From positions 3,350,001 to 3,414,000 of the forward strand of contig CM097885.1 of NCBI GenBank assembly GCA_044892525.1: DNA of 64,000 nt, in the 5' to 3' direction. The notes under the pieces are model-generated. The model was given only the letters and a program-made list of their open reading frames with translations, made no database searches and was not told where the DNA came from. This document shows, in pieces, positions 24,731 to 54,572 of this stretch; position 1 is the first letter of the stretch; each line of letters starts with the position of its first letter. Source of the DNA: Schmidtea polychroa. Lineage: Eukaryota. A program made the position numbers and the translations under genes.

Positions 24731-24985
24731 TTTTTCAAGGTCAAATTTTAAACAAAGACATATGACTCATCAAGGTCATTGAAACAAAGACAATGACTCA
24801 TTCGAGGTCACTGGGTGACTCATCAAGGTCATTGAAACAAAGACCATGGCTCATCAAAGTCATGGGTGACTCTTTAAGGTCAAGGTCATATTTTAAAGGA
24901 CAAGGTTATATTTTTAAGGTCAAGGCCATATATTTTAAGGTCAAGATCATATTTTTAAGGTCAAGGTCATATTTTAAGGTCAAAC
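24731..24985 (+). promoter_or_regulatory. Subterminal motif array: TGACTCA (AP-1-like), TCAAGGTCA (NR5A/Ftz-F1-like), AACAAAG (HMG-box-like)
   Basis: Multiple exact motif copies; function inferred. Confidence 0.5.
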
Positions 24986-25776: not shown

Positions 25777-27048
25777 ATGAATAATAAAAATAAATTAAAT
25801 CTTGATTACAATAAAGAATTTATGCATGAAATTAAAAAAATTGATATTTTAAAAATCTCTCCAACCTCGGGATCTATTGCAAACTTAAATCGTAGAGGTG
25901 ATATAGTTTTTCAATCTCTTCAAACATCAAATCCTATAGATGTTTGTAATGCAAAATTATATTACAAAATTGAATTAGAAATTGAAGCTAATAAAAATAT
26001 AACCTTGGAAAACAATTTCTTTCCAAACTTATTCAGTAACATGAGATTAAAACTAGGATCATCAGAAATTGAAACTGTTTTACATCCAGGAGTATATTCT
26101 ACAATGTTAAATTTTATTTTAACTGGTTGTGATTATAAAAATGAATATGGTGAATTAACAGGTTGGATTCCTGATGTTAATAAAGGGGATTTAGATAAAG
26201 ATGGTTTAGATGTAAATTTTGGATACTATAAAAGAGTTGAACTTTATAAATCTAAAAAATTTGAAGGTTATTTTGAATTAAAACACTTATTTGGATTCCT
26301 TCAAAACTATAACCGTATACTTCATAATGTTTTTATAGAATTAACCTGTAATAGAATAGAAGGTGATAAAAGATTGTTCTATGGAGGTGTAGATACAAAA
26401 GCTAAATTAAAATTATCAACACTTGAATTACATATACCTGAATGGACTTTAAATCCTCAATCTGAAATTAAACTCCTTGAAAGATTAAATTCCAACAAAT
26501 CTATAAATGTAAATTATTTAAATAGAGTCTGTAGTGAATTTAGTATGACAGAGGGTTCAACATATTCTAAAAAGGTAGCAAATTTAGCATACCGACCGAG
26601 ATATATCTTTATTGGATTCAAAGAAGTAGATTTATCATTCCATAAAAATAACAACTTGTTTATTCAAAAGATTGGAGATGATAATTTAAAATCAATACAA
26701 ATTCAATTAAATAGTTCTTATTATCCAATAAATAGAATGGAATTTAATATTGAAAATAATGAAAACATATTCCCATATCTAAATTATATTGAAACATGTT
26801 ATGATTTTAAAGTTGAACCGCAATTAAGTTTAGAAGATTTCAAAAATTTATATTCTATATTTTGTATAAATGTATCAGATCAAGATGATCGTCTACCTAT
26901 AAATAATGTTGATGTTACACTTCATATAACAAAGGATTCTAATTTTAAAGCTAAAGTATATACATTAATATTAGAAGAAAAGAAAATAGAAATGAAATTA
27001 TATGGTGGAAAGATTTCAATTATTGAAAATGTACAAGGAGATTCATAG
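25777..27048 (+). CDS. Major capsid protein (double jelly-roll), element D
   Basis: 423 aa; LENNFFPNLFS..LKLGSSEIETVLHPGVYSTM, RPRYIFIGF, LNSSYYP and YSIFCIN motifs; gene context. Confidence 0.8.
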   Translation: MNNKNKLNLDYNKEFMHEIKKIDILKISPTSGSIANLNRRGDIVFQSLQTSNPIDVCNAKLYYKIELEIEANKNITLENNFFPNLFSNMRLKLGSSEIETVLHPGVYSTMLNFILTGCDYKNEYGELTGWIPDVNKGDLDKDGLDVNFGYYKRVELYKSKKFEGYFELKHLFGFLQNYNRILHNVFIELTCNRIEGDKRLFYGGVDTKAKLKLSTLELHIPEWTLNPQSEIKLLERLNSNKSINVNYLNRVCSEFSMTEGSTYSKKVANLAYRPRYIFIGFKEVDLSFHKNNNLFIQKIGDDNLKSIQIQLNSSYYPINRMEFNIENNENIFPYLNYIETCYDFKVEPQLSLEDFKNLYSIFCINVSDQDDRLPINNVDVTLHITKDSNFKAKVYTLILEEKKIEMKLYGGKISIIENVQGDS

Positions 27049-27063
27049 TTTTTAACTTTTAAA

Positions 27064-28442
27064 ATGTCTTATTGGAAATGTGAAATTTGTAATTGTCAAG
27101 TTAGAAAACATCATAAAGCAAGTCATGTTAAAACTAAAAAACATACATCTCGAGTGGGAGGAGACCTTCAATCTTCAAAAACAACATCTTCAATATTAAA
27201 ACCCTTTACTACAGAAAAATATCCAGGTGAAAGACATTTATTTAAACACAACTATACTGGACCTGGAACACGTCTAGATATTAGATTAGATGAAAATAAT
27301 AATCCAAAACCCGGAGAAGAACCAATAAATAGAATTGATCAAGCAACTTTAAAACATGATATTGCTTACAATTCTGAAGATATTAGAGATAGACATGTTG
27401 CTTATGTTAATTTAATACATGATTTAAATAATATCCAAAACCCATCAACCCAAGAAAAGATTCAAAGAGCTCTAGTTAAATTAGCAATGAAAGGTAAGAT
27501 CTTTTTTGGAGCCGGAGCCACCTTTGGAGCCGGACACCCTAGAATAGCAAAAGATGTTGCTAATAAAAAGATTATTCAACAAGCAGAGATTGAGAATCAA
27601 CTCGAGAGTGCATCCAAGACTAGTTTATTATTCCCAACAGAATCACAAATAAAATATGCCAACGAATTGCACCATGAATTTAGAAAAAATAAAAAATATT
27701 TAAAAGTTCAAGTACATGAAAAAGATCATACTTGGTCTGCTGATTTAGTCTTTATGCCAACAAAATCATCAGACCCTGAAAAATATAAAATAATTTTAAC
27801 AGTAATAGATTTATATACGAGATTGGCTTTTGCAAATGTTTAGAAACCAAAACAGGATATTCAATTACAGAAGCATTTGAAAATATATTTGAAGAACATC
27901 AAAGAATTCCAAAATATTTATGGTGTGATAAAGGAACAGAATTTTATAACAAAGTTTTTACAAAGTTTTTAAATGAAAATGATATTAAATTATATTCAAC
28001 AGAAAACGAAGGAAAAGCAGTCGTATTTGAAAGATTAAATTGAACATTAAAAAATAAAATGTGGAAATATTTTACTGCTATTGGAAAACAAAAATGGAAC
28101 AATGAATTGTTACAAAAGATTGTAAATGAATATAATAATGATGTACATAGTTCTATAAAATCAACACCTTTAAATGCTTCCTTGAATCCTTTAAAACTTA
28201 TAAATCCTGAAGCCGTTAAACTGGTAAATGAAAAACCAAAGTTTAAAATTGGTGATCGAGTAAGAATATTTAAATATAAAAATAAATTTGAAAAAGGATT
28301 CACAGCAAAATGGACAAATGAAATTTTTATTATAAATAAAATACATTATACAATTCCAATAACATATGGTATCATCGATGAAAATAATGAAAAAATATTA
28401 GGTAGATTTTATAATAATGAACTACAGAAAACAGATTTCTAA
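27064..28442 (+). pseudogene. C2H2 zinc finger + parvovirus-type PLA2 + retroviral-like integrase fusion; frameshift near 27841 and stop near 28041
   Basis: CEIC..H..H; HNYTGPGT and LKHDIAY; WSADL..VIDLYTR, LWCDKGTEFYN, ERLN*TL, FKIGDRVRI..FEKGFTAKWTNEIF. Confidence 0.88.
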
Positions 28443-28453: not shown

Positions 28454-29239
28454 CTAAAATAAACATTTCCATATTTCACCTTCTTCTCTATCCAAATAAA
28501 TATAATTATATTTTTCTTTCCAATGATTATCTGCAAACATATCAAACATACTCTTATCAGGTTCAACATTTGAAAATAAATCACTATAAATCATATTCTT
28601 ATCACGCTTTTCTAATTTAAAAAATGTAAAACAATTAGAATTATTTCTTATTGAGTTTTTATCCAAAGCATAATAAGTTTGAGAAATATAAATAACATTA
28701 CAATTATTATGTCGACCTCGTGTAAAATAACTCTTTTGAATCTCTTGATTTTTCATATTAACAACATCATCAAATATAACTAGATTCTTTTTATCTTTAG
28801 GAAGTAAATCACAATGTAAAACATCTTCAGGTTTATTAGAGAATAAAACTTTAATCCATTCATTTTCAGAAATGTAATCATTTTTATTATCAATATCTGA
28901 TTCTAAAATAGTTTCCTTGTACCAATCAATCATATCACAAGGTTGAAAAACCTCATCAGGACATCTATGTTGATTTTTAAAAATATCAATTATAGCTTTT
29001 TTAGTTAATTTAATTTCAAATCCACATTTCAAAAGTTGTAATTCTGGTTGATTTATGGTTGTAGAATAAAAGATTAAATTATTATAATCTAAAAAACCAT
29101 CCTCGAGTAATATTCTCAAAAGAAGTACATTCTTTCCACATCCAGAAGACCCAAAGATTAATAATCTAAAATTATCAGGAAATAATTTATTATTAAATTT
29201 ACTCTTGTGCCGAGTTAAAATTGGTTTCCAAGTATCCAT
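28454..29239 (-). CDS. A32/FtsK-like genome packaging ATPase, element D
   Basis: Walker A GSSGCGKN, Walker B LVIFDD, FTRGRHNN..YISQ motif. Confidence 0.92.
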   Translation of the reverse strand: MDTWKPILTRHKSKFNNKLFPDNFRLLIFGSSGCGKNVLLLRILLEDGFLDYNNLIFYSTTINQPELQLLKCGFEIKLTKKAIIDIFKNQHRCPDEVFQPCDMIDWYKETILESDIDNKNDYISENEWIKVLFSNKPEDVLHCDLLPKDKKNLVIFDDVVNMKNQEIQKSYFTRGRHNNCNVIYISQTYYALDKNSIRNNSNCFTFFKLEKRDKNMIYSDLFSNVEPDKSMFDMFADNHWKEKYNYIYLDREEGEIWKCLF

Positions 29240-29255: not shown

Positions 29256-29780
29256 ATGACAACTGAAGAATCTTTACAAGAATTAATAAATTCAAATAAA
29301 AATAAATCAGTAGTAATGGATGGAAAAAAATATTTTATTGGAAAACATGTAAAAGAACAGGTTAAAGAAAGACTGAAGACTGGAGGGATTCTTCCCCTAA
29401 TGGCTTTAATACCTGCAATCATTGCAGGTTTATCAGGTGCTGCTGGAATAGCTGGAGGAATTGCAACTACAGTTCAAAAAGCTAAAGAATCTCAAAAGAC
29501 AGACCTAGAAAAAGAAAAATTACAAACTGAAATCGATTCAATGAAAAAGAAGAGTAAGGGGCTATATCTCAATCCTTATAAAGGTCGAGGTTTATATCTC
29601 GATCCATATAAAGGTAGAGGTTTAAATGATTTTTTAAAAAATCAAATTTCTACATCTTCATCTTCATCTTCAAAAGATAAAGATGATTTAAAAAAAATAT
29701 GTAAATCTTTAAAGAATGGATGCCTCTGTAAAACTAAAAATGGTAAAGGGTTGTATTTAAAACCATTTAAGGAACAATAA
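29256..29780 (+). CDS. Putative virion core/membrane-active protein
   Basis: GG followed by hydrophobic ILPLMALIPAIIAGL (adenain-like site) and three GxGLYLxP repeats. Confidence 0.6.
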   Translation: MTTEESLQELINSNKNKSVVMDGKKYFIGKHVKEQVKERLKTGGILPLMALIPAIIAGLSGAAGIAGGIATTVQKAKESQKTDLEKEKLQTEIDSMKKKSKGLYLNPYKGRGLYLDPYKGRGLNDFLKNQISTSSSSSSKDKDDLKKICKSLKNGCLCKTKNGKGLYLKPFKEQ

Positions 29781-29793: not shown

Positions 29794-30558
29794 ATGGTAT
29801 ATGAAGAAAGATTAGCACTTTTAAAAAAATTACAATCAGAACAAGACAAGTATAATATAAAAGATATAACCCAACATAGTGAATCTATAACAGCAAATGA
29901 AGAAATGACACAACAACAACAACCAACAATTAAAGCTATAGAATCTCTAAAATCTAAAGAGGTGGTAGATAAGAGTCCAAGGACTAATGAATTGGAGTGG
30001 CATGAAGATGAAATGATTATAAAACCTCTTAAAGTTGATCCTAAAATTAGAGAGGGGTTAAGTGAAACAATTAGGCCCACATTTCAGATTAATGCTAAAG
30101 GATATCAAATAATAACAATTAATAAACAAAACTTTATTTTAGGTATATTTGAAGATAAACCACATTTTCGTTCACAAAATCTTTATAATAATGAATATTT
30201 AGACTTTGAATTTACAGATGATTTTTATAAATTAATTTGTGGATATCCTTCAGATGATATTAAAGAAATTGAAAAATATTTAGATTTTATAAAAATAATA
30301 GGAGGTAGTTCAAAAGCAAAATATATTCAAGATTTAAAGAATTATTTAAATAAAAATGAAAAGGGTTATATTGTTAAAGAAGGTGATAGACTAGAGGGAA
30401 AAGATTTCATCAGTCTTTTTATAGAATTGAGAAAACTATTAGCTGCTAAAAAAGCAGGACATAATAATTTAAATTCTGATATTTTAAAGATTTCAAAAGA
30501 TTTATTTAAACAAGGAATAATTTCAAAAGATAAATTTAATAAATATACAAATGACTAG
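29794..30558 (+). CDS. Polinton protein of unknown function
   Basis: Intact ORF in the morphogenesis block; C-terminal LRKLLAAKKAGHNN motif. Confidence 0.65.
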   Translation: MVYEERLALLKKLQSEQDKYNIKDITQHSESITANEEMTQQQQPTIKAIESLKSKEVVDKSPRTNELEWHEDEMIIKPLKVDPKIREGLSETIRPTFQINAKGYQIITINKQNFILGIFEDKPHFRSQNLYNNEYLDFEFTDDFYKLICGYPSDDIKEIEKYLDFIKIIGGSSKAKYIQDLKNYLNKNEKGYIVKEGDRLEGKDFISLFIELRKLLAAKKAGHNNLNSDILKISKDLFKQGIISKDKFNKYTND

Positions 30559-30979
30559 CATATTAGATTTTTTAAAAACATTTGGAATAAATGCAAAAAC
30601 AAATTTTGATTTAAAAGATTATGCAGATTATTTAAATTTAAAAATTAAAATATTAATGAATGATGAATTGTCAAGTCTGAAAGGACTAAAGGATAATATA
30701 ATAATCAATTATGAAAATTCAAATGAAAAAGGATGTCATTAGGTTTGTATATATAATAAATCTATATACTTTGATTCTTTTGGGATTAAACCCACTAAAG
30801 AAGTAGAAGACTATCTTGAAAAAGGCTACACCTATAATTCTTTACAAGTTCAACCTAATAATACTAAAATATGTGGTATTACAAGTTTATATGTTTTGTA
30901 TAGATTGAATGCGTCCAAAGGAGAGGGCTTTGAATCTATAATCCAAGAAATTTATAAAGATTTAAAACCTCTATTATAA
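30551..30979 (+). pseudogene. Adenain-like cysteine protease with a premature stop (TGG to TAG)
   Basis: GCH*VC, YFDSFG and QVQ...ICG continue in the same frame past the stop at 30740-30742. Confidence 0.85.
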
Positions 30980-31017: not shown

Positions 31018-31740
31018 ATGTCAGATAAATATTCAAGAAGTTTATTAATAAATTCAAATGAATCAGATTTTAGTATAAATTTTGAAGATTCAATAAATTT
31101 AGATCAAAATTTAAATTATGAATTAGGACTCTTGTGGTTTAGCTGCTTTAATACTATTTTTAATATAAATATTATTAATAATAAATTTGATATATTTAAG
31201 AGGGATATTAACCCCAAGTCAGTAGTTGAAGACCGCGAGACTATAGTAATCGAACCAGGATCATATGAAATAGTAGATTTAGCTAAAATAATTCCAAAAA
31301 AAACAAATGGAGCTGTAGAAATAAAAGCAGATATTCAAACTTCAAAATGTGTTGCAACTTTAAAAATTTATGGACTTGATGTTGATGCGTCTAGTTTCTT
31401 TCATACTATTTTAGGTTTTGAAGTCGGAAAATATAGACAATCACCTATTAAATCTAAAAATATTATACAAATAACAAATATAAATTCTATAAATATAGAG
31501 TGTGATTGTATAATGGGATCATACAATAATGGTAAACATGCAAATATTTTATATTCCTTTCCTTCCAATGTTGTTCGAGTTGGATATAAAATGGTTGAAA
31601 GAATGAATCCTCCAAATTATTTACCTTTATGTAGAAAAAACCTAATGGATATTCATTTTAGAATTGTTGATGAAAATGGAGAATTAATAAATTTTAATGG
31701 AGAAAAGATTTCAATGTGTTTACATTTGAAACAAGTTTAG
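31018..31740 (+). CDS. Minor capsid (penton-like) protein, element D
   Basis: YELGL..FNTIFNI, IEPGSYEI, INIECDCI.GSY.NG, YLPL..I.DENGELINFNGE motifs. Confidence 0.8.
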   Translation: MSDKYSRSLLINSNESDFSINFEDSINLDQNLNYELGLLWFSCFNTIFNINIINNKFDIFKRDINPKSVVEDRETIVIEPGSYEIVDLAKIIPKKTNGAVEIKADIQTSKCVATLKIYGLDVDASSFFHTILGFEVGKYRQSPIKSKNIIQITNINSINIECDCIMGSYNNGKHANILYSFPSNVVRVGYKMVERMNPPNYLPLCRKNLMDIHFRIVDENGELINFNGEKISMCLHLKQV

Positions 31741-31749: not shown

Positions 31750-32664
31750 ATGAATTATAATAAATTAGGATTATATAATGATGGATTAAAAGATGAAGAT
31801 GTTATAAACCTTACAGAAAAAAGATTTGTTAATGAAGTAGGAGATTCAATGAAGGGAGATTTAAATTTAAATGCTCACAAGATAAAAGATTTAGGTCCTC
31901 CGATTGATGACTTTGATGCAACTAATAAAAAATATGTAGATGAAAAACTTGAGTCTCTTAAATCGAGTAAGCTTAATAATATCGAACAACGATTAAATGA
32001 AGAAACTCAAAGGTTAACTGACACAATATCAATTTTAAAAAATAAAAGACTTATGCATAAACAACTTATGGATAATAAAATTAATACAATATATAATATA
32101 ATAAATGAGATGATTACATCATTTAATGTAAGACTTGTTAAATTAGAGTCTCATACAACACACATTAACACAACACACACTATTAGAAAAAGAGCTGCTG
32201 AATTAGAACAGAATAATACATTATTACCCAATAGATATAAACATTTTTTAGAACCAACTTTAATAATAACAAATAGTAAAGAATGGTCTTGTTTTATGGT
32301 TTTAAAGATTATTGATCCTTATTTCTTTTTATTTAATGATGATGATGAGACAATGAAATGGTTTGTAAAATGTGATTATAATAGTAAGTTTGAAAAGGAT
32401 GAAGTTATAATAACTGGTTATGATTTAACACATGGATATTGGCATGATAAAACTGATTCACATAAAATACATAAAGTTAAAAGTAAGAATATTATTTTTA
32501 AAAGCACACTTGTAAGTTATATAGATTTAATATTTTATGAAAAAAAGGTTGATGTTGATGAAGTTCGTAAAGCGTTGATAGAATTGTATAAAGATATTCT
32601 CTCAAAAAGAGCTTCTTATGATATTCGAGTGTTGGTACCAGATAATAAAGTCTTATTTTTTTAA
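31750..32664 (+). CDS. Fibre-like protein
   Basis: GDSMKGDLNL..HKI.DLG.P.DD.DATNKKYVD fibre motif followed by a coiled coil. Confidence 0.65.
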   Translation: MNYNKLGLYNDGLKDEDVINLTEKRFVNEVGDSMKGDLNLNAHKIKDLGPPIDDFDATNKKYVDEKLESLKSSKLNNIEQRLNEETQRLTDTISILKNKRLMHKQLMDNKINTIYNIINEMITSFNVRLVKLESHTTHINTTHTIRKRAAELEQNNTLLPNRYKHFLEPTLIITNSKEWSCFMVLKIIDPYFFLFNDDDETMKWFVKCDYNSKFEKDEVIITGYDLTHGYWHDKTDSHKIHKVKSKNIIFKSTLVSYIDLIFYEKKVDVDEVRKALIELYKDILSKRASYDIRVLVPDNKVLFF

Positions 32665-33148: not shown

Positions 33149-33557
33149 CAGGTCACCGCCAGCACAAAGACATTTTTTACCCCACCCCCCCCCCCCGGCC
33201 GGAAAAAAAAAAAATTTTTTTTTCAACTTGAGAACAAAGACATATGACTCATCCGATGACTCATCAAGCATTCAAGGTCGACTTGAGAACAAAGACATAT
33301 GACTCATCAAGCATTCAAGGTAGACTTGAGAACAAAGACATATGACTCATCAATGATATATAATTATCATTATTTTTAAAAATATTATTATTTCTAATGT
33401 CTTTGTGCTCGCGGTGACCTAATATTTGGCCTGCCAAAAGTTATCGTTCCCATCAACTTATTTCATCGATCGATAGCTTATTTTGAAGCTTGGTGCCAGA
33501 CCTTTCGAATGAGCTATTGTTGTTATCACCATCTTTATTATTAACATTTTCCCAAGA

Positions 33558-35141: not shown

Positions 35142-35640
35142 TTAAACAATAAAATAATGTAAAATTAACAAAAGTAAACTAAATATTGATGTACTACTAT
35201 TCGCAGCATTATTGTTTGAAATTGGTAACGTCGAATTGATTTTCAGATATTCTATTGATCCTTTGATTGTTTGAATTTCTCTTAATAATAAAAATCTTTT
35301 TTAACAAATAATCATGCTTCTTATCAATAATTTTCATATTCTTTTTATTTTCAACAATAGAGTTATTGTAAACTTCAATATGATCAATCAATTTAATTTT
35401 TATATTTTGTATATATGCAAATGATAGTTCATAACTGTTTTCTAAATTCTCCAATCTTTGAGATATTCTTTTTCCTGGATGCTTTGACCATTTTGGTTTG
35501 TCGAGAATATATAAAATATCCATCAACTTGGCTGTATTCGGACAAACACATATTGATTTATTAAAAGACTCCACTGTTATTGTTGTATTGTGTGAGTACA
35601 CACTCGTTATAATAATTAGCAATATGAATATAGTTTTCAT
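35142..35640 (-). pseudogene. Secreted/GPI-like coiled-coil protein, frameshifted copy
   Basis: Matches 45758-46258 until a small deletion near 35295. Confidence 0.75.
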
Positions 35641-35745
35641 TGTGTATCAAATCAAAGCCTTTCTTTTACATTTATAGCCTATCAACCAATCAAAATCATA
35701 CGGTATTAGTATAAATAAAACATCATATTTAAAATCATTGTAGAA

Positions 35746-36260
35746 ATGTCTCATTTTATGGAAAATCTTTTATGCGAAATTATAAACAAGAACATTTTGG
35801 AAAGCCTGAGTTTCCTAGTGGACCGGACCGAAAAGATAATCGAAGGAAATCATATCGATTATCAGGATATGATCAATTCCGAGTGCCTGGAAACGAAAAA
35901 ATTCTATTTTCATAGGATTTTTAACTGCCTATGTGACGATGAGATGAATTGGACCCGAATACTAGTAGGGTTCGCTTATATGAAGATAATCATAGAAAAA
36001 AGTTTTTGGGACTCGGAACATTATTATCAGTGGTCTCAAGAAGTAATACTTTTATAATCTATATTTTATTAATATTTATGTTCTAGATAATCAAGTCAAA
36101 GTTTCAACCATGGATTGAAGCCAATGGCGGATGGGGCGTACTGAATCAACTCGCCAGAAATGCGAAGGAAATAGATCAACAGAAAATCAAATTTAAAAAC
36201 TATATAAAACTTGCAACAGGTGTTGCTATTTTTTATGTTTTATGCCGGTTTTTTAAATAA
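35746..36260 (+). CDS. Bcl-2 family protein; exons 35746-36042 and 36087-36260
   Basis: BH1 DDEMNWTRILVGFAY, BH2 PWIEANGGWG, hydrophobic tail; 44-nt GT-AG intron. Confidence 0.85.
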
Positions 36261-36337
36261 AAATTAATATAGTTATTTTGTTTGATTTTTAAATAAAAGT
36301 TTAAATAAGTTTACAAACAATAATTAACTAAAATTTA

Positions 36338-36735
36338 TTAATTAACACATTCACAGTCGTCATCTCCACATTTCATTATATTTTCAACGACATGATCAAT
36401 ACAATCATTCGTAATATTATCTTTAGGTTCATCTTTAGGTTCCTCTATAGGTTCCTCTATAGGTTCATCTATAGGTTCATCTATAGGTTCATAGATTTCC
36501 TCATCAATTTCTTGAGTATCAGTTTCTTGAGTTTCTTCATCATCATCAAATCCTGTATCTTGACTCTCAACTATCCATCCAATATTTAAGGCATTTGTAA
36601 TAGATAATATGTCCTCAATTTTCACACCAGCTATTTCTGCTAACTTTTCCAACAAAACGTTGATTAAAAATTCTAAATAATAAATAATTCGGTAATTAAT
36701 TAATCATGTTAACCTTTTTCTGCAGTCATTTTCAT
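36338..36735 (-). CDS. Small acidic protein with EPI(D/E) repeats, two exons
   Basis: Paralogue of 46956-47329 with two more repeat units. Confidence 0.7.
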
Positions 36736-36862
36736 CACTTTAAAGCTATATTTTAAGTTTGTTTATAGATTTTCTTTGTTAAATATGCATGTCATTTGCA
36801 TTTATGTTGCTATTAATAAAGAGAAAAAACAAATATGACTAATACATTTAATAAATATAACA

Positions 36863-37273
36863 TTAAAATATTTGTGATAGTCTAGCAGACATAATTTTCC
36901 AAATAGGAGAATATACATCATTATTATCAACTTTATATCCCTGGATTGCAATTGTTATATACCAATTTTCATTTTCTTTGAAAGCGATTTCATCAAAAGC
37001 ATCATAAAATCTTGCATATCTATTGTTGAACCAGGCATGTTGATTACATGATAGATTCGAATCTATCCGTTTAAAAACATCATCAATAGTTTTGACATCA
37101 ATCATTGAAAGCGTGCCGAATAAGAATTGAAATTTAGTTTGAATTAGCTTGACTGGTGCAACCAATTTCATATTGATTTCTTCTTTTAAAAAATACATTT
37201 TGTAGTTGTGGAACATTTGAACTGGTTGTACCATTTCTTTAGGTTTTTCGGTGCATGAAATTTTCTTGGTCAT
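36863..37273 (-). CDS. Hypothetical 136-aa protein
   Basis: Intact ORF conserved with 47456-47866. Confidence 0.75.
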   Translation of the reverse strand: MTKKISCTEKPKEMVQPVQMFHNYKMYFLKEEINMKLVAPVKLIQTKFQFLFGTLSMIDVKTIDDVFKRIDSNLSCNQHAWFNNRYARFYDAFDEIAFKENENWYITIAIQGYKVDNNDVYSPIWKIMSARLSQIF

Positions 37274-37629
37274 AGTGAATAATGATTAAATTGAAATGTT
37301 ACAGGGTTTTTATACCTTTGACTAATGCCTATCAACCAATCATATTATAGCATGTCTTTGTTTAAGTTTGCATGTCATTTGCATTAATGCTGCATTTATG
37401 TTCTATTAATGTGACATATTATTATAAATGTTTTATTATTAATGTTTTATTATTATTACTATTTCTATTATTATTTCTATTATTATTATTACTATTACTA
37501 TTTATATTATTATTTCTATTATTACTATTTCTATTATTATTATTTCTATTATTATTATTATTATTATTACTATTATTACTATTATTATTTATTACTATTT
37601 CAAATATAAAAAAAACACAAAAAATACAT

Positions 37630-38046
37630 TTATTGATATCCTAAATCAACCATCCGGGAGTAGTGAAACCTTCTCAGAGTTTTCACTAACTCCCATCCGA
37701 CATATCGCCGATATCGATCGGCACAACATGAGCATCCCATGATGCATTGATACTCCGGTTCCATTTGCTTCATGGTCCTGTTGATCTTTATATCCCATAA
37801 GACTTGATGGAATACCTCCATGATTCCAATTTGAGTTGAATAAAAAATCAAATCAGGGATGATTTCCGGTTCCCGATCCTTGATTACTTCAGCAATTTGA
37901 GGATAATAATATTTTATCCTATTGATCATGACTTCTAAATATTTTTCTAAAATAATAAATATAAAAAATGACAAAATAAAAATTTTAAATTTACCATAAT
38001 CGTCAATATCTTTCATCAGATTCGCGGCGCTCGGAATTTTGTACAT
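37630..38046 (-). CDS. Hypothetical protein with a CxxxCxCC motif; probable in-frame intron
   Basis: Paralogue of 48146-48563. Confidence 0.7.
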   Translation of the reverse strand: MYKIPSAANLMKDIDDYGKFKIFILSFFIFIILEKYLEVMINRIKYYYPQIAEVIKDREPEIIPDLIFYSTQIGIMEVFHQVLWDIKINRTMKQMEPEYQCIMGCSCCADRYRRYVGWELVKTLRRFHYSRMVDLGYQ

Positions 38047-38118
38047 AGTGAAATAAATGAATCCTAAACAAAAAACCGTTTGTTTAAATCAATCAATAAC
38101 CAATTAGAAATTAACCAA

Positions 38119-38556
38119 TTAGAAATCGACCAATGAAATTATCTCATTTCGAACATTGTCAACAAATTCTCTATACTCCAAATTTCTCAACCCCAACATG
38201 ACAACCTTTCCACTAGCAAACACGTTGACACATATAGGGTTATATTTTAATAGTCTTAGTGCCAGAAACAATTCCGGTTCAAACATACAATCATATTTTT
38301 TCGACATGTTATATAGATTGATACTATGTCCCATATCCATAGTAACGGTAATTGATTGGATTATAATATTATTTATTCGATATTGTAATTTATTAATATC
38401 CAAAGGTTTCTTACATCCCATGATTCTGCATTTACCAGTCTTGAAAAATATTATCGGATATTTCCCGCTTCTATCGATAATTTGCTGGGGTTTCCCTGGT
38501 GGGAACCTCATATTCGATACATCAAAATTTCCTCGATAATTTATATTTGCTAACAT
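38119..38556 (-). CDS. TATA-binding-protein-like, element A copy
   Basis: IFFKTGKCRIMG and FEPELFLAL..VFASGKVVMLG; the conserved Pro is Leu in this copy. Confidence 0.85.
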   Translation of the reverse strand: MLANINYRGNFDVSNMRFPPGKPQQIIDRSGKYPIIFFKTGKCRIMGCKKPLDINKLQYRINNIIIQSITVTMDMGHSINLYNMSKKYDCMFEPELFLALRLLKYNPICVNVFASGKVVMLGLRNLEYREFVDNVRNEIISLVDF

Positions 38557-38655
38557 TATTAAATCATTTATGAAAATTAGTCTTTATATACAAATTGAGC
38601 ACGAGTTCATTAAATCATCGAATATAAACAAATACACATTTATAAAATTTTTGAA

Positions 38656-39282
38656 ATGGAATTAAGAAATGATGCAATATACCAAATCGTTGGTCCGAGT
38701 GGTAGTGGAAAAACATTATTTGTTTGTAAATTACTAAAATCAAATTTATTCAAATCAAAATTCAACAGGATTTATTGGTATATGGGTGCGGATGAAGAAC
38801 ATGGATTAACTCAATCAAGTTTCTGTAAATTAAAAAACATGAAAATAGTAAAGGGATTCGATAAAAACTGGTCCAGCCGATTAAAGAAAGGTGATGTCAT
38901 TATTATCGATGATTTGTATCAAGAAGCTAATAAAGAAAAAGATTTTAATAATTTATTTACAAAGATCAGCAGACATGTCGGTGTAACAGTTATTTTCATA
39001 ACACAAAATCTATTTCATCAAGGTGGGGCACATCGAACACGTAATTTAAATGTACAATATTTAGTTATTTTCAAGAATCCTAGAGACGCAACAGTGATTG
39101 ATTTTCTTGCACGTCAAGCATACACTAACAATCGTAATTTTCTTATCAGTGCATTTCAAGATGCTACAAAAATACCTCATGGATATATATTTCTTGATTT
39201 CACACAACAATGTCCCGATGATTTACGAGTAAAAATAGATATTTTCAACCCAAAAGGTGCCATGGTTTATAAACAAAGTTGA
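38656..39282 (+). CDS. Packaging ATPase, element A
   Basis: GPSGSGKT, IIIDD, SRH..ITQN, FKNPRD. Confidence 0.93.
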   Translation: MELRNDAIYQIVGPSGSGKTLFVCKLLKSNLFKSKFNRIYWYMGADEEHGLTQSSFCKLKNMKIVKGFDKNWSSRLKKGDVIIIDDLYQEANKEKDFNNLFTKISRHVGVTVIFITQNLFHQGGAHRTRNLNVQYLVIFKNPRDATVIDFLARQAYTNNRNFLISAFQDATKIPHGYIFLDFTQQCPDDLRVKIDIFNPKGAMVYKQS

Positions 39283-39300
39283 AAACCTCTATGAATAATA

Positions 39301-39828
39301 ATGTTTCTAAAAGCAAGGGTGAAAAATATTAGGAAATTAAGAAAAAGTATTAGAAAGAGTATTAAAGTTCCAAAAGTTCCACCAACAACTAGTTATACAC
39401 CATCTAAAAAACTTGTAACTGAAAATTTCTCTGCAATGAATCTTATTTCGAAAAATCCTAAACCTAAACGTAAAACCCGTAAAACCCGTAAAACCGGTAA
39501 AAAAGTAGTTAGAAATCATCGCAGTTTTCCATTTTTTAATGCATTGTTAAAGGCCCCGAGTATGAAAAGAATGAATATATTGCAATCATTCCCAAATTTT
39601 GTTGTCGATGATTTACTCAATATTATACTTAAAGTAGTCAAAGGCAAAATTAAAATCAGTAAATCAAAAAAGCATTTATTGAGCAAACATAATAAACCAT
39701 TGTTATCTTTAGTAAATAATAAATATCGTAAGCAAATGAGGAAAATTATATATAAAAAACAAGGTGGATTTATTGGTGCATTGATACCTCTGGAATTATC
39801 ATTATTAGGTGGAGTTACACATTCATAA
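39301..39828 (+). CDS. Basic core protein, element A
   Basis: K/R-rich, C-terminal QGGFIGALIP. Confidence 0.7.
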   Translation: MFLKARVKNIRKLRKSIRKSIKVPKVPPTTSYTPSKKLVTENFSAMNLISKNPKPKRKTRKTRKTGKKVVRNHRSFPFFNALLKAPSMKRMNILQSFPNFVVDDLLNIILKVVKGKIKISKSKKHLLSKHNKPLLSLVNNKYRKQMRKIIYKKQGGFIGALIPLELSLLGGVTHS

Positions 39829-39889
39829 ACAATGGGTGCTAATCCTTCATTGCCCGACATTTAATTTAATTTTAAATCTTCTTGTTGTA

Positions 39890-40277
39890 ATGGAGAAGAT
39901 TTGGACGAACCCAGAAGACGAAGCCGGTTTCGGTGGAGTGGCAAAATTAAAGAAAAGAGTGCCGAATTCGAAAAAAGAAACCCAGAAGTGGTTATCAGAT
40001 CAGCTTGCGTACAGTTTGAACAAACCAATGCGGAAAAGATTTCCAACAAGAGCGTATAAAACATTTGGTATTGACGATTTATGGCAAATGGATTTGATGG
40101 AGATGATACCTTATTCGAAAATTAACAATGGGAATAAATATATTTTAACATGTATTAATGTATACAGCAGGTTTGCACGAGCAATACCAGTCAAGGCAAA
40201 ATCTGCAGAAGAAATGTCCAAGGCAATTAATATTTTATTTAAAGATGGACATCCTAATAACTTGCAAACAAATTTAG

Positions 40278-40356
<79 letters not shown>

Positions 40357-40357
40357 T
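39890..40357 (+). pseudogene. Truncated integrase; second catalytic Asp changed to Asn; sequence lost inside the (ATT)n intron
   Basis: QTNLG here versus QTDLG in element C; donor at 40278; no exon 2. Confidence 0.9.
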
Positions 40358-40890
40358 TAAATCCAGATTGGACCTGTTAGAAGCGACAAAAAAGAGAAAA
40401 AACAGTAGAGTAGATGGATTGGTCACCGCGAAAACCGGTCACCGCTGGATTTAAGTGTAACAATGTATAGGCAGAATTTAATTTTCTACAAAATGGCACA
40501 ATTACAATTTCAGTTTGTTTCTTTGTCTGTAATACACACATGCTTTTTCAATAAATTTGTATTTTTCCGCGTGGTTAACGTAATTTTCTTGGATTTTTAT
40601 TCATATAATATATAGATAAAATTTAATTTTCTATAAAATAGCTTGATTAAAATTTATGTATCTTGTTTTGTGTGTAATACACACATGTTTTTACAATAAA
40701 TTTCTATTTTTCATACATTTAACGTAATTTTCTTGAAATTTTATTCATATAATATATAGATAAAATTTAATTTTCTATAATTATAATTGGTTAAAAACTA
40801 TGTATCTTGTTTTGTGTATAATACACACATGTTTTCCTGATTTTTTTTTATTATTAATATTATTTTTAATTTTTTTTTTAAATATTAATA

Positions 40891-44554: not shown

Positions 44555-45801
<1,247 letters not shown>

Positions 45802-46363
45802 TTGATGTACTACTATTTGCAGCAATATTGTTTGAAATTGGTAACGTTGAATTGATTTTCAGAGATTCTATTGATCCTTTGATTGTTTGAATTTCTCTTA
45901 ATAATAATTCAATCTTTTTTAACAAATAATCATGCTTCTTATCAATAATTTTCATATTCTTTTTATTTTCAGCAATGGAGTTATTGAAAACTTTAATATG
46001 ATGAATCAATTCAAATTTAATATTTTGTATATATTCAAATGATAGTTCATAACTGTTTTCTAAATTCTCCAATCTTTGAGATATTCTTTTTCCTGGATGC
46101 TTTGACCATTTTGGTTTGTCGAGAATATATAAAATATCCATCAACTTGGCTGTATTCGGACAAACACATATTGATTTATTAAAAGACTCCACTGTTATTG
46201 TTGTATTGTGTGAGCACACACTCGTTATAATAATTAGCAATATGAATATAGTTTTCATGGTGTATCAAATCAAAACCTTTCTTTTACATTTATAGCCTAT
46301 AAACCAATCAAAATCCTCCGGTATTAGTATAAATAAAACATCATATTTTAAATTATTGTAAAA

Positions 46364-46884
46364 ATGTCTCAATTTATGGAAAATCTTTTAAGAGAACTCG
46401 TCAACAGGAATATTATGGAAAGCATATGTTTCCTGGTCGATCGAACCGAAAAGGTCATAGAAGGTAATCACATTGATTATGAAGATGTGATCAATTCCGA
46501 TTGTCTGGAAACCAAAAAATTCTATTTTAATAGAATTTTTAACTGTCTATGCGACGATCAGATGAAGTGGACCCGAATACTAGTAGGGTTCGCTTATATG
46601 AAAATAATTATCGAAAGAAGTCTATGGGACTCAGAGCACTATTATCAGTGGTCTCAAGAAGTAATACTTTTATAATTTATATTTTATTAATATTTATTTT
46701 TTAGATAATCAAGTCAAAGTTCCAACCATGGATTGAAGCCAATGGCGGATGGGGCGTATTCAATCAACTCGCTAGAAATGCGAAGGAAATTGATGAGCAG
46801 AAAAGAAAATTTAAAAACTATGTAAAACTTGCAACAGGTGTTGCTATTTTGTATATTTTATCAAGATTTTTAAATAAAAATTAA
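46364..46884 (+). CDS. Bcl-2 family protein, 158 aa; exons 46364-46660 and 46705-46884
   Basis: BH1-like DDQMKWTRILVGFAY, BH2 PWIEANGGWGVF, tail anchor LATGVAILYILSRF; phase-0 GT-AG intron. Confidence 0.87.
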
Positions 46885-46955
46885 TATAGTTATTTTTGTT
46901 TGATTTTTAAATAAAATTTTAAATAAATTTACAAACACTAATTAACTAAGATTTA

Positions 46956-47329
46956 TTAATTAACACATTCGCAGTCGTCATCTCCACATTTCATTATATT
47001 TTCAACGACATGATCAATACAATCATTCGTAATATTATCTTTAGGTTCCTCTATAGGTTCCTCTATAGGTTCCTCTATAGGTTCATAGATTTCCTCATCA
47101 ATTTCTTGAGTATCGGTTTCTTGAGTTTCTTCCTCATCATCAAATCCTGTATCTTGACTCTCAACTATCCAGCCGATATTTAAGGCATTTGTAATAGATA
47201 ATATGTCCTCAATTTTCACACCAGATATTTCTGCTAACTTTTCCAACAAAAAGTTGATTAAAAATTCTAAATAATAAATAATTCGGTAATTAATTAATCA
47301 TGTTAACCTTTTTCTGCAGTCATTTTCAT
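46956..47329 (-). CDS. Small acidic protein with EEPI repeats; intron 47267-47307
   Basis: Splicing gives MKMTAEKEFLINFLLEKL..., 110 aa. Confidence 0.72.
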
Positions 47330-47455
47330 CACTTTAAAACTATATTATAATTTTGTTTATATATTTTCTTTGTTAAATTTGCATGTCATTTGCATTTATG
47401 TTGCAATTAATAAAGAGAAAAACAAATCTGACTAATACATTTATTAAATATAACA

Positions 47456-47866
47456 TTAAAATATTTGTGAAAGTCTAGCAGACATAATTTTCCAAATAGG
47501 AGAATATACATCATTATTATCAACTTTATATCCCTGGATTGCTATAGTTATATACCAATTTTCATTTTCTTTGAAACTGATTTCATCAAAAGCATCATAA
47601 AATCTTGCATATCTATTGTTGAACCATGCATGTTGATTACACGATAGATTCGAATCTATCCGTTTAAAAACATCATCAATAGTTTTGACATCAATCATTG
47701 AAAGCGTGCCGGATAAGAATTCGAATTTAGTCGGAATTAGCTTGACTGGTGCAACCAATTTCATATTGATTTCTTCTTTCAAAAAATACATTTTGTAGTT
47801 GTGGAACATTTGAACTGGTTGTACCATTTCTTTAGGTTTTTCGGTGCTTGAAATTTTCTTGGTCAT
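47456..47866 (-). CDS. Hypothetical 136-aa protein, possibly an OB-fold ssDNA-binding protein
   Basis: Conserved in A; beta-rich aromatic C-terminus; fold assignment speculative. Confidence 0.7.
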   Translation of the reverse strand: MTKKISSTEKPKEMVQPVQMFHNYKMYFLKEEINMKLVAPVKLIPTKFEFLSGTLSMIDVKTIDDVFKRIDSNLSCNQHAWFNNRYARFYDAFDEISFKENENWYITIAIQGYKVDNNDVYSPIWKIMSARLSQIF

Positions 47867-48019
47867 CGTGAATAATGAATAAATTTAAATGTTACAGGGT
47901 TTTTATACCTTTGAGTCATGTCTATCAACCAATCAGATGATAGCATGTCTTTGTTTAAAATTGCAGGTCATTTGCATTAATGCTGCATTTATGTTCTATT
48001 AATGTTTTATTATTATTAC

Positions 48020-48070
<51 letters not shown>

Positions 48071-48145
48071 TTCTATTATTATTACTATTTATATTATTAC
48101 TATTTTAAATATAAAGAAAAAACACAATTCAAACACGAAATACAT

Positions 48146-48563
48146 TTATTCGTAACCCAAATCAACAATCCGGGAGTAGTGAAACCTTCTCAGAGTTTTC
48201 ACTAACTCCCATTCGACATATCGCCGATATCGATCGGCACAACATGAGCATCCGATGATGCACTGGTACTCTGGCTCCATTTGTTTGATGGTTCTGTTGA
48301 TCTTAATATCCCACAGGAACTGGTGAAATACCTCCATTATTCTAATTTGAGTAGCGTAGAAAATGAGGTCCGGAATTATTTCTGCTTCTCGATCCTTGAT
48401 AATTTCAATAATTTGAGGATAATAATATTTCATCCTATCGATCATAACTTTTAAATATTTTTCTAAAATAATAAATAGTAAATAATGTGAAAATAAAAAT
48501 TTTAAATTTACCGGAATCGTCAATATCCTTCATGAGGGTTGCAGAGCTTGGTAATTTGTACAT
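48146..48563 (-). CDS. Hypothetical 122-aa protein with CIIGCSCC; intron 48463-48511
   Basis: Removing the 49-nt GT-AG intron restores colinearity with 37630-38046. Confidence 0.75.
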
Positions 48564-48636
48564 GATGTTGAAAAAATGAATTCTAAACAAAAACCGTTTG
48601 TTTAAATCAATCAATAACCAATAAGAAACTAACCAA

Positions 48637-49074
48637 TTAGAAATCAACCAATGAAATTATCTCATTTCGAACATTGTCAACAAATTCTCTATACTCCAAA
48701 TTTCTCAACCCTAGCATGACAACCTTTCCACTAGCAAACACGTTGACACATATAGGGTTATATTTTAATAGTCTTAGTGCCGGAAACAATTCCGGTTCAA
48801 ACATACAATCACATTTTTTCGACATGTTATATAGATTGATAGTATATCCTATATCCATAGTAACGGTAATTGATTGGATTATAATATTTTTTATTCGATA
48901 TTGTAATTTATTAATATCCAAAGGTTTCTTACATCCCATGATTCGACACTTACCAGTCTTGAAAAATATTATCGGATATTTCCCGCTTCTATCGATAATT
49001 TGCTGGGGTTTCCCTGGTGGGAACCTCATATTCGATACATCAAAATTTCCTCGATAATTTATATTAGCTAACAT
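48637..49074 (-). CDS. Minimal TATA-binding-protein-like factor, 145 aa
   Basis: Two TBP half-repeats: LANINY..IFFKTGKCRIMGCK and IQSIT..INL..FEPELFPAL..VFASGKVVMLG. Confidence 0.88.
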   Translation of the reverse strand: MLANINYRGNFDVSNMRFPPGKPQQIIDRSGKYPIIFFKTGKCRIMGCKKPLDINKLQYRIKNIIIQSITVTMDIGYTINLYNMSKKCDCMFEPELFPALRLLKYNPICVNVFASGKVVMLGLRNLEYREFVDNVRNEIISLVDF

Positions 49075-49172
49075 TATTAAATCATTTATGAAAATTAGTC
49101 TTTATATACACATTGAGCACGAGTTCATTAAATCATCGAATATAAACAAATACACATATATAAAATTTTGAA

Positions 49173-49799
49173 ATGGAATTAAGAAATGATGCAGTATACC
49201 AAATCGTTGGTCCGAGTGGTAGTGGAAAAACATTATTTGTTTGTAAATTACTAAAATCAAATTTATTCAAATCAAAATTCAACAGGATTTATTGGCATAG
49301 GGGTGCTGATGAAGAACATGGATTAACTCAATCAAGTTTCTGTAAATTAAAAAACATGAAAATAGTAAAGGGATTCGATAAAAACTGGTCCAGCCGATTA
49401 AAGAAAGGTGATGTCATTATTATCGATGATTTGTATCAAGAAGCTAATAAAGAAAAAGATTTTAATAATTTATTTACAAAGATCAGCAGACATGTCGGTG
49501 TAACAGTTATTTTCATAACACAAAATCTATTTCATCAAGGTGGGGCACATCGAACACGTAATTTAAATGTACAATATTTAGTTATTTTCAAGAATCCTAG
49601 AGATGCAACAGTGATTGATTTTCTTGCACGTCAAGCATACCCTAATAATCGTAATTTTCTTATCAGTGCATTTCAAGATGCTACAAAAATACCTCATGGA
49701 TATATATTTCTTGATTTCACACAACAATGTCCCGATGATTTACGTGTAAAAACAGATATTTTCAACCCAAAAGGTGCCATGGTTTATAAACAAAGTTGA
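49173..49799 (+). CDS. A32-like packaging ATPase
   Basis: Walker A GPSGSGKT, Walker B IIIDD, SRH and ITQN motifs. Confidence 0.95.
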   Translation: MELRNDAVYQIVGPSGSGKTLFVCKLLKSNLFKSKFNRIYWHRGADEEHGLTQSSFCKLKNMKIVKGFDKNWSSRLKKGDVIIIDDLYQEANKEKDFNNLFTKISRHVGVTVIFITQNLFHQGGAHRTRNLNVQYLVIFKNPRDATVIDFLARQAYPNNRNFLISAFQDATKIPHGYIFLDFTQQCPDDLRVKTDIFNPKGAMVYKQS

Positions 49800-49817
49800 A
49801 AACCTCTATGAATAATA

Positions 49818-50345
49818 ATGTTTCTAAAAGCAAGGGTGAAAAATATTAGGAAATTAAGAAAAGGTATTAGAAAGACTATTAAAGTTCCAAAAGTTCCACC
49901 AACAACTAGTTATACACCGTCTAAAAAACTTGTAACTGAAAATTTCTCTGCAATGAATCTTATTTCGAAAAATCCAAAACCTAAGCGTAAAACCCGTAAA
50001 ACCCGTAAAACCGGTAAAAAAGTAGTTAAAAATCATCGCAGTTTTCCATTTTTTAATGCATTGTTAAAGGCCCCGAGTATGAAAAGAATGAATATATTGC
50101 AATCATTCCCAAATTTTGTTGTCGATGATTTACTCAATATTATACTTAAAGTAGTCAAAGGCAAAATTAAAATCAGTAAATCAAAAAAGCATTTATTGAG
50201 CAAACATCGGAAACCGTTGTTATCTTTAGTAAATAATAAAAATCGTAAGCAAATGAGGAAAATTATATATAAACAACAAGGTGGATTTATTGGTGCATTG
50301 ATACCTCTGGCATTATCATTATTAGGTGGAGTTACACAAACATAA
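49818..50345 (+). CDS. Basic virion core protein with a putative adenain cleavage site
   Basis: K/R-rich; QQGG followed by hydrophobic FIGALIPLALSLLGG. Confidence 0.72.
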   Translation: MFLKARVKNIRKLRKGIRKTIKVPKVPPTTSYTPSKKLVTENFSAMNLISKNPKPKRKTRKTRKTGKKVVKNHRSFPFFNALLKAPSMKRMNILQSFPNFVVDDLLNIILKVVKGKIKISKSKKHLLSKHRKPLLSLVNNKNRKQMRKIIYKQQGGFIGALIPLALSLLGGVTQT

Positions 50346-50406
50346 ACAATGGGTGCTAATCCTTCATTACCCGACATTAAATTTTATTTTAAATCTTCTT
50401 GTTGTA

Positions 50407-50794
50407 ATGGAGAAGATTTGGACGAACCCAGAAGACGAGGCCGGTTTCGGTGGAGTGGCAAAATTAAAGAGAAGAGTTCCGAATTCGAAAAAAGAAACCC
50501 AGAAGTGGTTATCAGATCAGCTTGCGTACAGTTTGAACAAACCAATGCGGAAAAGATTTCCAACAAGAGCGTATAAAACATTTGGTATTGACGATTTATG
50601 GCAAATGGATTTGATGGAGATGATACCTTATTCGAAAATTAACAATGGGAATAAATATATTTTAACATGTATTAATGTATACAGCAGGTTTGCACGAGCA
50701 ATACCGGTCAAGGCAAAATCTGCAGAAGAAATGTCCAAGGCAATTAATATTTTATTTAAAGATGGACATCCTAATAACTTGCAAACAGATTTAG

Positions 50795-50862
<68 letters not shown>

Positions 50863-50876
50863 ATTATTATTATTAA

Positions 50877-50919
<43 letters not shown>

Positions 50920-51549
50920 TTAGGTAAAGAATTCTACAATAGCAAAGTTAAGCAAATCCTCGATAAACTGAAAATAAATCATTACTCGGTACATTCTCAA
51001 TACAAAGCTGCCCATGTTGAAAGATTTAATCGAACATTGAGAGATAGATTAAAGAAATTGTTCGTGCATCAAGGTAATAAAAAATGGGTAAATGCTTTAC
51101 CCAAAATAATAACAAGTTATAATCATTCATCACATCGAGGACTGAATGGATTGAGACCGGTTGATATTACATCAAAAACATCATTATCTAAAAAATCTGT
51201 AAAAATTACAAAACCTAAATATAAAGTCGGTGATCATGTTAGAATTAGTAAAATTAGTGCATCACCATTTATTAAAAATTTTGATACAAATTGGAGTGAT
51301 GAAGTCTTTGTAATTTCAAAAATAAATACTAAACAGAATCCTGTAATGTATGTCATCAAAGACAATGATAATAATATTGTACAGGGGAAATTTTATGAGC
51401 AGGAATTACAAGTCATTCCTCCCCCAAAAGTATTTAGAATTCAAAAAATATTGAAAACTAAAAAGGTCGGTAAGGATAAACAATACTATATCAAATGGCA
51501 CGGTTATCAAAACCCGTCATGGATATCGTCAAAAGACCTAGTAAAATGA
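50407..51549 (+). CDS. Retroviral-like DDE integrase with C-terminal chromodomain; intron 50795-50923
   Basis: WQMDL, QTDLG|KEFYN after splicing, VERFNRTL, YKVGDHVRI; chromodomain IQKILK..YYIKWHGY..SW. Confidence 0.95.
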
Positions 51550-52550
51550 ATTTTTATATTATTTTACCTAGCAATAGCTGTCCACTTATTCATCCAGATA
51601 ATAAAGCCAGCAAATTCAGGGTCAATCTTCAAAATCCGATATATTTGGATAATAGCTGGGAAGTTGCTCTGTTGGATTTTACATTTGTATACCAAGCCTT
51701 TCCATTTTATAGTAAGGCTAAAATTGGATACAAAAAGAATGAGTGGCAGGATAGATTATTGTCTATGATCATTGATAATGCAGATGATGAAGTTCGGTTG
51801 TCTAATTCAACTGATCCAGCTGTGAAAATGTATATTAACCATCCATATATAGTAGTTGAATGTAAAAATTATCCTTTTACTGTAAAATTTGATAGTTTGG
51901 AAATGGCAAAACGATTGGAATTAAAAACCCAAAGTCATAAAGTTCTTTCCGATAAATTCACTGTGCTACGACCGGGATATTCTAAAACTGTACAGCGATT
52001 TGAACCAATTTTATTTACAGTTTCATATCCGGGTATAACGTCTGGTACATTTGAGTTCAAAGATAATTTATACATTTCGAAATTGGATGAATTACAGACA
52101 TATTTAAAACAAAGTGGTTTATTTAAATCATTGGAAATATCAGACAGATTCAAATTCAGTTTGAATCCCGAATTTACGGAAATTACTTTTGATGCAAATC
52201 TAATAAAAACATTAGGATTATCAAAAGCAACATATGCTCAAGATGATCAAGGTACCCTAGCTCCGAAAATAATTAAACTTCACCAACAAATGTTCATCTA
52301 TAGTAATATTGTTGATCCTGTAATTGTTGGCGATTCTTTGGTCCCACTCCTGAAATCTGTTTGGATTGAAAAATATGAACATGATGAAGTAGTCAATATA
52401 AATATCGATAATCCCATGTATTTACCTGTGTCAACCTCATGTATAAACAATATAGAAATAAATATACGTGATGATTCTGGTAAATTAATCGCATTTCCAA
52501 AAGATTCAAAAACTCATTTAACATTACATTTTCGTAAAGTAGATGGCTAA
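51546..52550 (+). CDS. Minor capsid (penton-like) protein
   Basis: FYIILPSNS..N..S.F.V.L..PI.L..WEVAL start; IYSNIV.P.IVGDS..PLL and YLPV end; ATGA overlap with integrase. Confidence 0.88.
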   Translation: MNFYIILPSNSCPLIHPDNKASKFRVNLQNPIYLDNSWEVALLDFTFVYQAFPFYSKAKIGYKKNEWQDRLLSMIIDNADDEVRLSNSTDPAVKMYINHPYIVVECKNYPFTVKFDSLEMAKRLELKTQSHKVLSDKFTVLRPGYSKTVQRFEPILFTVSYPGITSGTFEFKDNLYISKLDELQTYLKQSGLFKSLEISDRFKFSLNPEFTEITFDANLIKTLGLSKATYAQDDQGTLAPKIIKLHQQMFIYSNIVDPVIVGDSLVPLLKSVWIEKYEHDEVVNINIDNPMYLPVSTSCINNIEINIRDDSGKLIAFPKDSKTHLTLHFRKVDG

Positions 52551-54131: not shown

Positions 54132-54158
54132 ATGTATATTGAAACATAAAAAGTTGTC

Positions 54159-54543: not shown

Positions 54544-54572
54544 TAAATGTATCCTTTCCTTTGTTGTTGTGA

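Follow-up and report, generated by a model that had tools for sequence, protein, structure and literature searches.

A 64,000-nucleotide stretch of the Schmidtea polychroa genome (GenBank assembly GCA_044892525.1, contig CM097885.1, positions 3,350,001 to 3,414,000 of the forward strand; hereafter the window) was found to carry a gene in which a parvovirus-type phospholipase A2 (PLA2) is joined in one reading frame to the start of an integrase. This gene (27064-28442, plus strand) appears, from the surrounding sequence, to sit in a partial Maverick/Polinton element of the adintovirus type. The copy in the window is dead. Comparison with its relatives indicates that the fusion is fixed and long-standing, with the catalytic residues of both enzymes retained. 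It represents a recurrent, conserved architecture of a known kind of element, for which we propose a polyprotein mechanism that is testable and unproven.

The original prediction, made from the letters of the window, held that one frame runs without a stop from a C2H2 finger to the first catalytic Asp of the integrase. This proved correct: positions 27064-27843 form a single stop-free frame of 259 amino acids leading from a C2H2-like finger through the PLA2 to the integrase start, and all the motifs were located in it (CxxC..H..H at 27079-27144, RVGGD at 27151, YTGPG at 27253, HDIAY at 27355, FFGAG and TFGAG at 27502-27534, ELHH at 27664 and the first integrase Asp at 27742-27744). The YxGxG loop and the HDxxY motif of parvovirus-type PLA2s are present, as is an rve integrase with its DDE residues, though broken. 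In a Pfam domain search, which upheld both domain identities, PF08398 matched this frame above the Pfam cut-off and rve gave a weak match (E 0.002) in the next frame. The features of the gene are the following.

27064-28442, plus strand: PLA2-integrase fusion gene, broken in this copy (87-88% identity to the intact natural protein P0022, both frames)
27079-27144, plus strand: C2H2-like zinc-finger leader, optional in the family (motif read directly)
27151-27165, plus strand: RVGG-D, candidate protease site preceding the PLA2 (GG/GxG pattern; predicted cleavage)
27157-27516, plus strand: parvovirus-type phospholipase A2 domain (PF08398, E 6.7e-08; dyad position, residue 114, substituted here)
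27502-27534, plus strand: FFGAG/TFGAG, candidate protease site or sites at the PLA2-integrase junction (GxG pattern; predicted cleavage)
27517-27660, plus strand: variable linker without Met (from the sequence)
27652-28442, plus strand: Maverick rve integrase without chromodomain (D 27742, D 27927, E 28029)
27825-27843, plus strand: frameshift, decay (tblastn frame switch against P0022 and P0001)
28041-28043, plus strand: in-frame stop, decay (read in the integrase frame)

The frameshift, from which the integrase continues in a different frame to its end at 28442, and the stop had both been attributed to decay, an interpretation that our analysis supports. The substitution of PLA2 residue 114, the acidic dyad position in the following helix, comes in addition and is the sole exception among 108 aligned sequences. 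The copy is dead because of these three changes and of a broken protease gene in the same element. An unbroken natural counterpart exists in P0022, a protein of 470 amino acids with both domains, which is 87% and 88% identical to the window's two frames. No second copy of the fusion gene was found within the 64-kb window, and a search of sequencing runs listed 20 that contain the stretch, with no RNA run on record among them.

The fusion was then sought in relatives; all the counts of fusions given here are enriched for fusions, the queries themselves being fused. Both Pfam domains were present in one chain in 12 of 18 longer homologues (37-83% identity), the remaining six being Lottia gigantea gene models with PLA2 only. 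Our own profiles found both domains in 48 of 110 near-length homologues and PLA2 only in 62, many of which are fragments or stand-alone genes. Among the best 150 of 47,280 representatives of 50% clusters, 32 carried both domains, one PLA2 only and 117 integrase only; 31 of the 32 two-domain representatives have the order seen in the window and one the reverse, and 24 were confirmed by Pfam. At the DNA level, the PLA2 end and the integrase start were both present in 20 of 36 metagenome loci. The PLA2 is in frame with the integrase up to the ELH motif in 19 of these 20 informative loci, and one stop-free stretch spans the PLA2 end and the integrase start in 18; at L018 the frame reads through to the ELH motif and shifts only after it, and L028 is the sole informative locus with the two parts in different frames. 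Four of the 36 loci hold a PLA2 without this integrase (L022, stand-alone; L025, L026 and L032, PLA2X-like), and the other 12 are truncated or broken. Complete intact fusion open reading frames (ORFs) were recovered at L002, L003, L004 and L006. Altogether, 111 fused sequences, including that of the window, form 74 groups at 70% and 30 groups at 50% identity. The question whether the fusion frame is fixed, which the original prediction had left to sister copies, is answered by these data in favor of a fixed frame, and the search for copies with separate ORFs failed to refute it. Relatives were not found among viral contigs, genome contigs or phage records. Stop-codon reassignment was considered for the in-frame stops in L007, L008, L012 and L014 and rejected, the stops being mixed TAA and TGA at differing places, which points to decay.

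Several relatives depart from the common arrangement. P0126 is the reverse-order fusion, running from integrase through a chromodomain to PLA2. At L022 (587-1170), the stand-alone PLA2 ends four residues past the junction Gly and a separate integrase-like ORF, with a stop, lies close behind; we take this ORF to be another type of integrase, and the locus shows a possible pre-fusion arrangement. P0014, one of the Lottia gigantea gene models, passes from PLA2 through GMG to the integrase start motif and then into unrelated sequence, so that the junction exists in a named mollusc. The PLA2 of P0185 is 72% identical to that of the window and ends two residues past the junction Gly, this protein being a close unfused or truncated relative. 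At L028 (405-470), the PLA2 is in the 0 frame and an intact integrase in the -1 frame, with A AAA AAC at the join and a hairpin after it (z -2.5, 5/200 shuffles as good), and the integrase frame has no Met ahead of the start motif. This one locus may owe its arrangement to programmed -1 frameshifting or just to an indel in the A run.

Catalytic residues of both enzymes are conserved in the fused sequences. For the PLA2, the His was found in 102/103, the Ca-binding Asp in 101/103, the Tyr in 102/103 and the dyad residue in 107/108; for the integrase triad the counts were 105/105 (D), 88/90 (D) and 82/83 (E). A model of P0001, an intact relative, matched retroviral intasomes, with an E value of 4e-12 for that of foamy virus. 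The N-terminal 153 residues of the window's protein were modeled with a predicted local distance difference test (pLDDT) score of 84, and rice PLA2 was the top fold match in both searches with middling scores (E 0.14, probability 0.99; Z 7.2, root-mean-square deviation 3.9, 91 residues aligned), the next match having a Z of 5.9. The best sequence matches in the PDB were the PLA2 regions of adeno-associated virus capsid chains, and these were weak (E 0.8).

A FastTree phylogeny of 144 integrase domains recovered a clade of 19 proteins, all fused and including P0001 (support 0.999), the other fusions being scattered. In a tree of 65 rows, from which seven close fused relatives had been dropped and whose unfused rows were 17 picked after the 144-domain tree plus 12 random ones, the fused/unfused label changes 12 times versus 22 for shuffles. 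A single origin of all the fusions was rejected, since one clade of all fusions gave an approximately unbiased test p-AU of 1e-109 on this tree, where the "unfused" labels refer to protein records without DNA context, possibly partial. The scatter and the rejection of one clade imply repeated origins of the fusion, later splitting, or an exchange of integrases. PLA2 is not the only partner: in P0039, P0074 and P0093 an adenain-like protease is fused ahead of the integrase, whose start is immediately preceded by GxG or GG. These proteins carry the H-W, FDS(F/Y)G and CG-H motifs and were recognized by BLAST (E 1e-4 to 8e-7), with a Peptidase_C5 match for P0074 (E 0.019); their clusters have 3, 70 and 49 members, respectively.

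Adenovirus precursors are cut by the viral protease at (M/I/L)XGG-X and (M/I/L)XGX-G, and a relaxed P4 (Gln, Asn) is noted in adenoviruses (PMC4246237). In 91 of 105 fusions the PLA2-integrase junction holds a Gly followed by Gly or by x-Gly (GG/GxG), against 14 of the 759 glycines in the integrase core; after 70% redundancy removal the junction count is 59/69. The junctions are of two types, GG-x (28) and Gx-G (63), which correspond to the two adenovirus-protease patterns from P2 to P1' but mostly not at P4. A GG or GxG also lies upstream of the PLA2 in 58 of the 70 fusions with a scorable N-side. Glycine motifs had been predicted at the domain borders of the window's protein, and RVGG-D and FFGAG/TFGAG do stand at both borders of its PLA2; RVGG-D and FFGA-G fit a Gly at P2 with a Gly at P1 or P1'. 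The segment past the upstream GG is amphipathic (moment 0.42 versus 0.26 when shuffled, 44 sequences). The linker is freely variable in length (6-223 amino acids, median 16) and lacks Met in 75/105, which means that the integrase of most members would be made only within the fusion, unless splicing supplies a start. The model of the fusion likewise shows no fixed domain packing (predicted template modeling score, pTM, 0.41; residues 152-160 and 174-187 with pLDDT below 50). In P0002, the leader contains a repeated QKGG unit, that is, multiplied candidate protease sites.

Taken together, these results lead us to favor, by a modest degree, a virion polyprotein that would be cut by the element's own protease and packaged. 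The parts of the gene, in order, are an optional zinc-finger leader, GG, PLA2, GxG/GG, linker and integrase. The precursor would be a late product that enters the capsid during assembly. The adenain-like protease of the element would cut at the glycine motifs, releasing the PLA2 to act in endosome escape and the integrase to travel with the incoming genome. The element could then integrate without prior expression of the gene. Cleavage, packaging and escape from the endosome are inferences, and parvoviruses provide the analogy for giving the PLA2 a role in entry (PMC4642659, PMC8502044). As a handle for packaging, the fusion would play the part that Gag-Pol has for the retroviral integrase. 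A broader proposal, which we put forward tentatively and hold somewhat short of an even chance, is that in many Mavericks a particle polyprotein has the integrase at its C-terminal end, linked according to lineage to the entry phospholipase or the maturation protease and freed at glycine sites. This would be a convergence, reached more than once, on retroviral integrase packaging, perhaps with control of the ratio by frameshifting, for which L028 is the one candidate.

A number of observations weigh against cleavage and packaging. The residues at P4 of the window's three sites are R, F and T, which miss the adenovirus M/I/L rule. Across the family, P4 is M, I or L in only 14/91 junction sites; Lys is the commonest residue (44/91), although the pX site of the element has Lys at this position too. 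The motif is missing from 14/105 junctions, and it was found in 9 of 16 PLA2-only records ending no more than 11 residues from it. Because it also ends stand-alone PLA2s, the motif may cap a helix or mark a boundary that was inherited. The contrast with the GG/GxG background (14/759) is overstated, since this background is integrase core and not other linkers. The low pTM of the fusion model may reflect its 13-row alignment. Finally, Mavericks in general can do without the fusion, since 117 of the best 150 representatives have the integrase without the PLA2.

These points bear on the choice between the polyprotein and its alternatives. The fusion could work uncleaved as one chain, with the PLA2 bringing the integrase into the particle or through membranes and the glycine motifs being no more than flexible ends of domains. 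The mismatch at P4 (77/91), the junctions without the motif, linkers down to 6 residues and the motif in stand-alone PLA2s all suit this explanation, which we nevertheless regard as unlikely: the motif takes just two forms, both of the protease type, and occurs more often in fusions (91/105) than in short stand-alone PLA2s (9/16), a second GG/GxG bounds the PLA2 upstream, and the same motif precedes the integrase in the protease-integrase fusions. Genome economy, in which neighboring PLA2 and integrase genes were fused repeatedly because the PLA2 already ended in a protease site, with the products separated in the cell and no special packaging of the integrase, also seems rather improbable to us. 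The retention of the fusion through the all-fused clade of 19 and the recurrence of particle proteins (PLA2, protease) as partners speak against it, though they are suggestive only; on the other side are the stand-alone PLA2 of L022 with a separate integrase-like ORF close behind, the recurrent fusion and fission on the 65-row tree with its rejected single clade, and the reverse-order P0126. An accident of decay or assembly, in which a lost stop codon joined two genes in this copy, is barely credible: the copy is indeed decayed (frameshift, stop, dyad substitution, broken protease) and L028 has both parts in different frames, but it is refuted by homologues, the same join being found in intact natural proteins at 83-88% identity and in 30 groups at 50% identity.

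The closest published arrangement is PLA2X of alpha adintoviruses (PMC8502044). As in the window, the parvovirus-type PLA2 there is one of a set of Maverick virion genes that also includes capsid, ATPase, adenain and rve integrase; in PLA2X, however, its C-terminal partner is pX and the integrase has a gene of its own, whereas in the window and at L002, L004 and L006 the pX is the separate gene and the PLA2 is joined to the integrase instead. Relatives of the PLA2X type were also present among the matches (L025, L032). The integrases of Mavericks and adintoviruses share with that of the window the rve fold, the DDE triad and the ELH(K) start motif but have a C-terminal chromodomain (PMC11071296, PMC5803895); the lineage of the window has the N-terminal PLA2 and no chromodomain. 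No Chromo match was found in P0001 or P0022, the window's ORF stops right past the SH3-like end, and a short tail is seen in 41/46 full-length fusions. Compared with the parvovirus VP1-unique PLA2 (PF08398), which has the same YxGxG loop and HDxxY, the window's PLA2 is fused to an integrase and not to a capsid protein, and is bounded by glycine motifs. In processing of precursors by the adenovirus protease AVP (PMC4246237), xGG-x and xGx-G likewise occur at domain borders, and the element has a pX-like gene; its P4 residue differs in being mostly Lys or another non-M/I/L residue. Adenoviruses have no integrase (PMC8502044).

In retroviruses, the integrase is the C-terminal part of the Gag-Pol or Pol precursor, together with particle proteins, and is freed by the virus's own protease. 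The fusion resembles this arrangement in having a C-terminal integrase joined to a particle protein, with a predicted release by protease, and differs in belonging to a DNA virus with a jelly-roll capsid and a cysteine protease, in which the integrase is partnered by an entry lipase or by the protease itself.

In the available portions of the published accounts, the PLA2 is given as a separate gene or as PLA2X and none gives this fusion (PMC8502044, PMC5803895, 10.64898/2026.06.19.733378, PMC3671162, PMC11071296, PMC4246237, PMC8097293, PMC4642659, PMC11296320, PMC4061559, PMC10748475). No description of a PLA2-integrase fusion was found in the literature searched, with figures, bioRxiv supplements, Repbase and subscription papers outside the search. 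Searches of this literature found no paper on packaging of the virophage integrase, a single unrelated item for virophage protease sites, and nothing on how the Maverick-Polinton integrase reaches the incoming genome or where the protease cuts. Maverick-Polinton particles have not been observed so far, according to two of these sources (10.64898/2026.06.19.733378, PMC8097293).

The zinc finger, which the original prediction counted as part of the fusion, holds up less well. Its ligand pattern is present in the window but gave no Pfam match at E up to 1, and a finger leader is found in only 23 of 111 fusions; three have a C4 ribbon (DUF5679 in P0007 and P0040) and 85, some of them partial, have neither. 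Matches in relatives were weak (zf-C2H2, E 0.08; zf-DBF, E 9e-4), and no zinc-finger fold was listed in the fold searches of the N-terminal model, which barely test it. That the finger is the integrase's own zinc-binding domain was rejected, as it precedes the PLA2 and is absent from most fusions. By these comparisons the finger is not a core part of the fusion; that it binds DNA or RNA is a guess.

The other genes of the element surround the fusion gene as follows.

25777-27048, plus strand: double jelly-roll major capsid protein (PF21738, E 1e-24)
28454-29239, minus strand: packaging ATPase, A32-like (Pox_A32, E 2.6e-09)
29256-29780, plus strand: pX-like core protein, encoded separately and carrying KTGG-I and three GxG motifs (Adeno_PX match under the cut-off, E 0.002)
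29794-30558, plus strand: conserved ORF, function not assigned (25-32% identity to ORFs in L002, L004 and L006)
30554-30979, plus strand: adenain-like protease, broken by an in-frame stop (both pieces match L030/L031 ORFs)
31018-31740, plus strand: probable penton, a minor capsid protein (48% identical to an ORF of L004; named from size and position)
31750-32664, plus strand: conserved ORF, N-terminal part common to L002, L003 and L006 (sequence comparison)

No direct Pfam match was found for the protease ORF, which was assigned through the L030/L031 ORFs; these also match the other protease of the window (Peptidase_C5, E 4e-06). The probable penton ORF likewise had no Pfam match. The same gene set occurs in other orders at L002, L004, L006 and L008. 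No PolB was found between 19.1 and 43 kb of the window, so that this copy is without one; at L029 a related integrase adjoins PolB, but the PLA2 side lies off the contig. No long inverted pair was found in 21.5-34 kb. A short same-strand repeat (24734-24801 and about 33271-33350) flanks the element and resembles Maverick terminal sequence.

A second, apparently complete Maverick occupies 44704-62420 of the window, with long terminal inverted repeats, PolB (56555-60703), capsid and protease. The frame of its chromodomain integrase (50326-51546) is open across an ATT-repeat expansion read as poly-Ile. A partial copy of this Maverick, 97-98% identical, lies about 10.5 kb upstream at 35200-40400. 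Both contain a TATA-binding-protein-like gene on the minus strand, at 48640-49101 in the second Maverick and at 38119-38583 in the partial copy (PF00352, E 2e-13 for the latter).

The existence of these fusions corrects the annotation of proteins that databases name hypothetical or transposase, and it supplies natural substrates with predicted sites for the element's protease. The fixed join of an entry lipase to an integrase is genetic evidence for the integrase as a particle protein, because its partner makes sense mainly in the particle.
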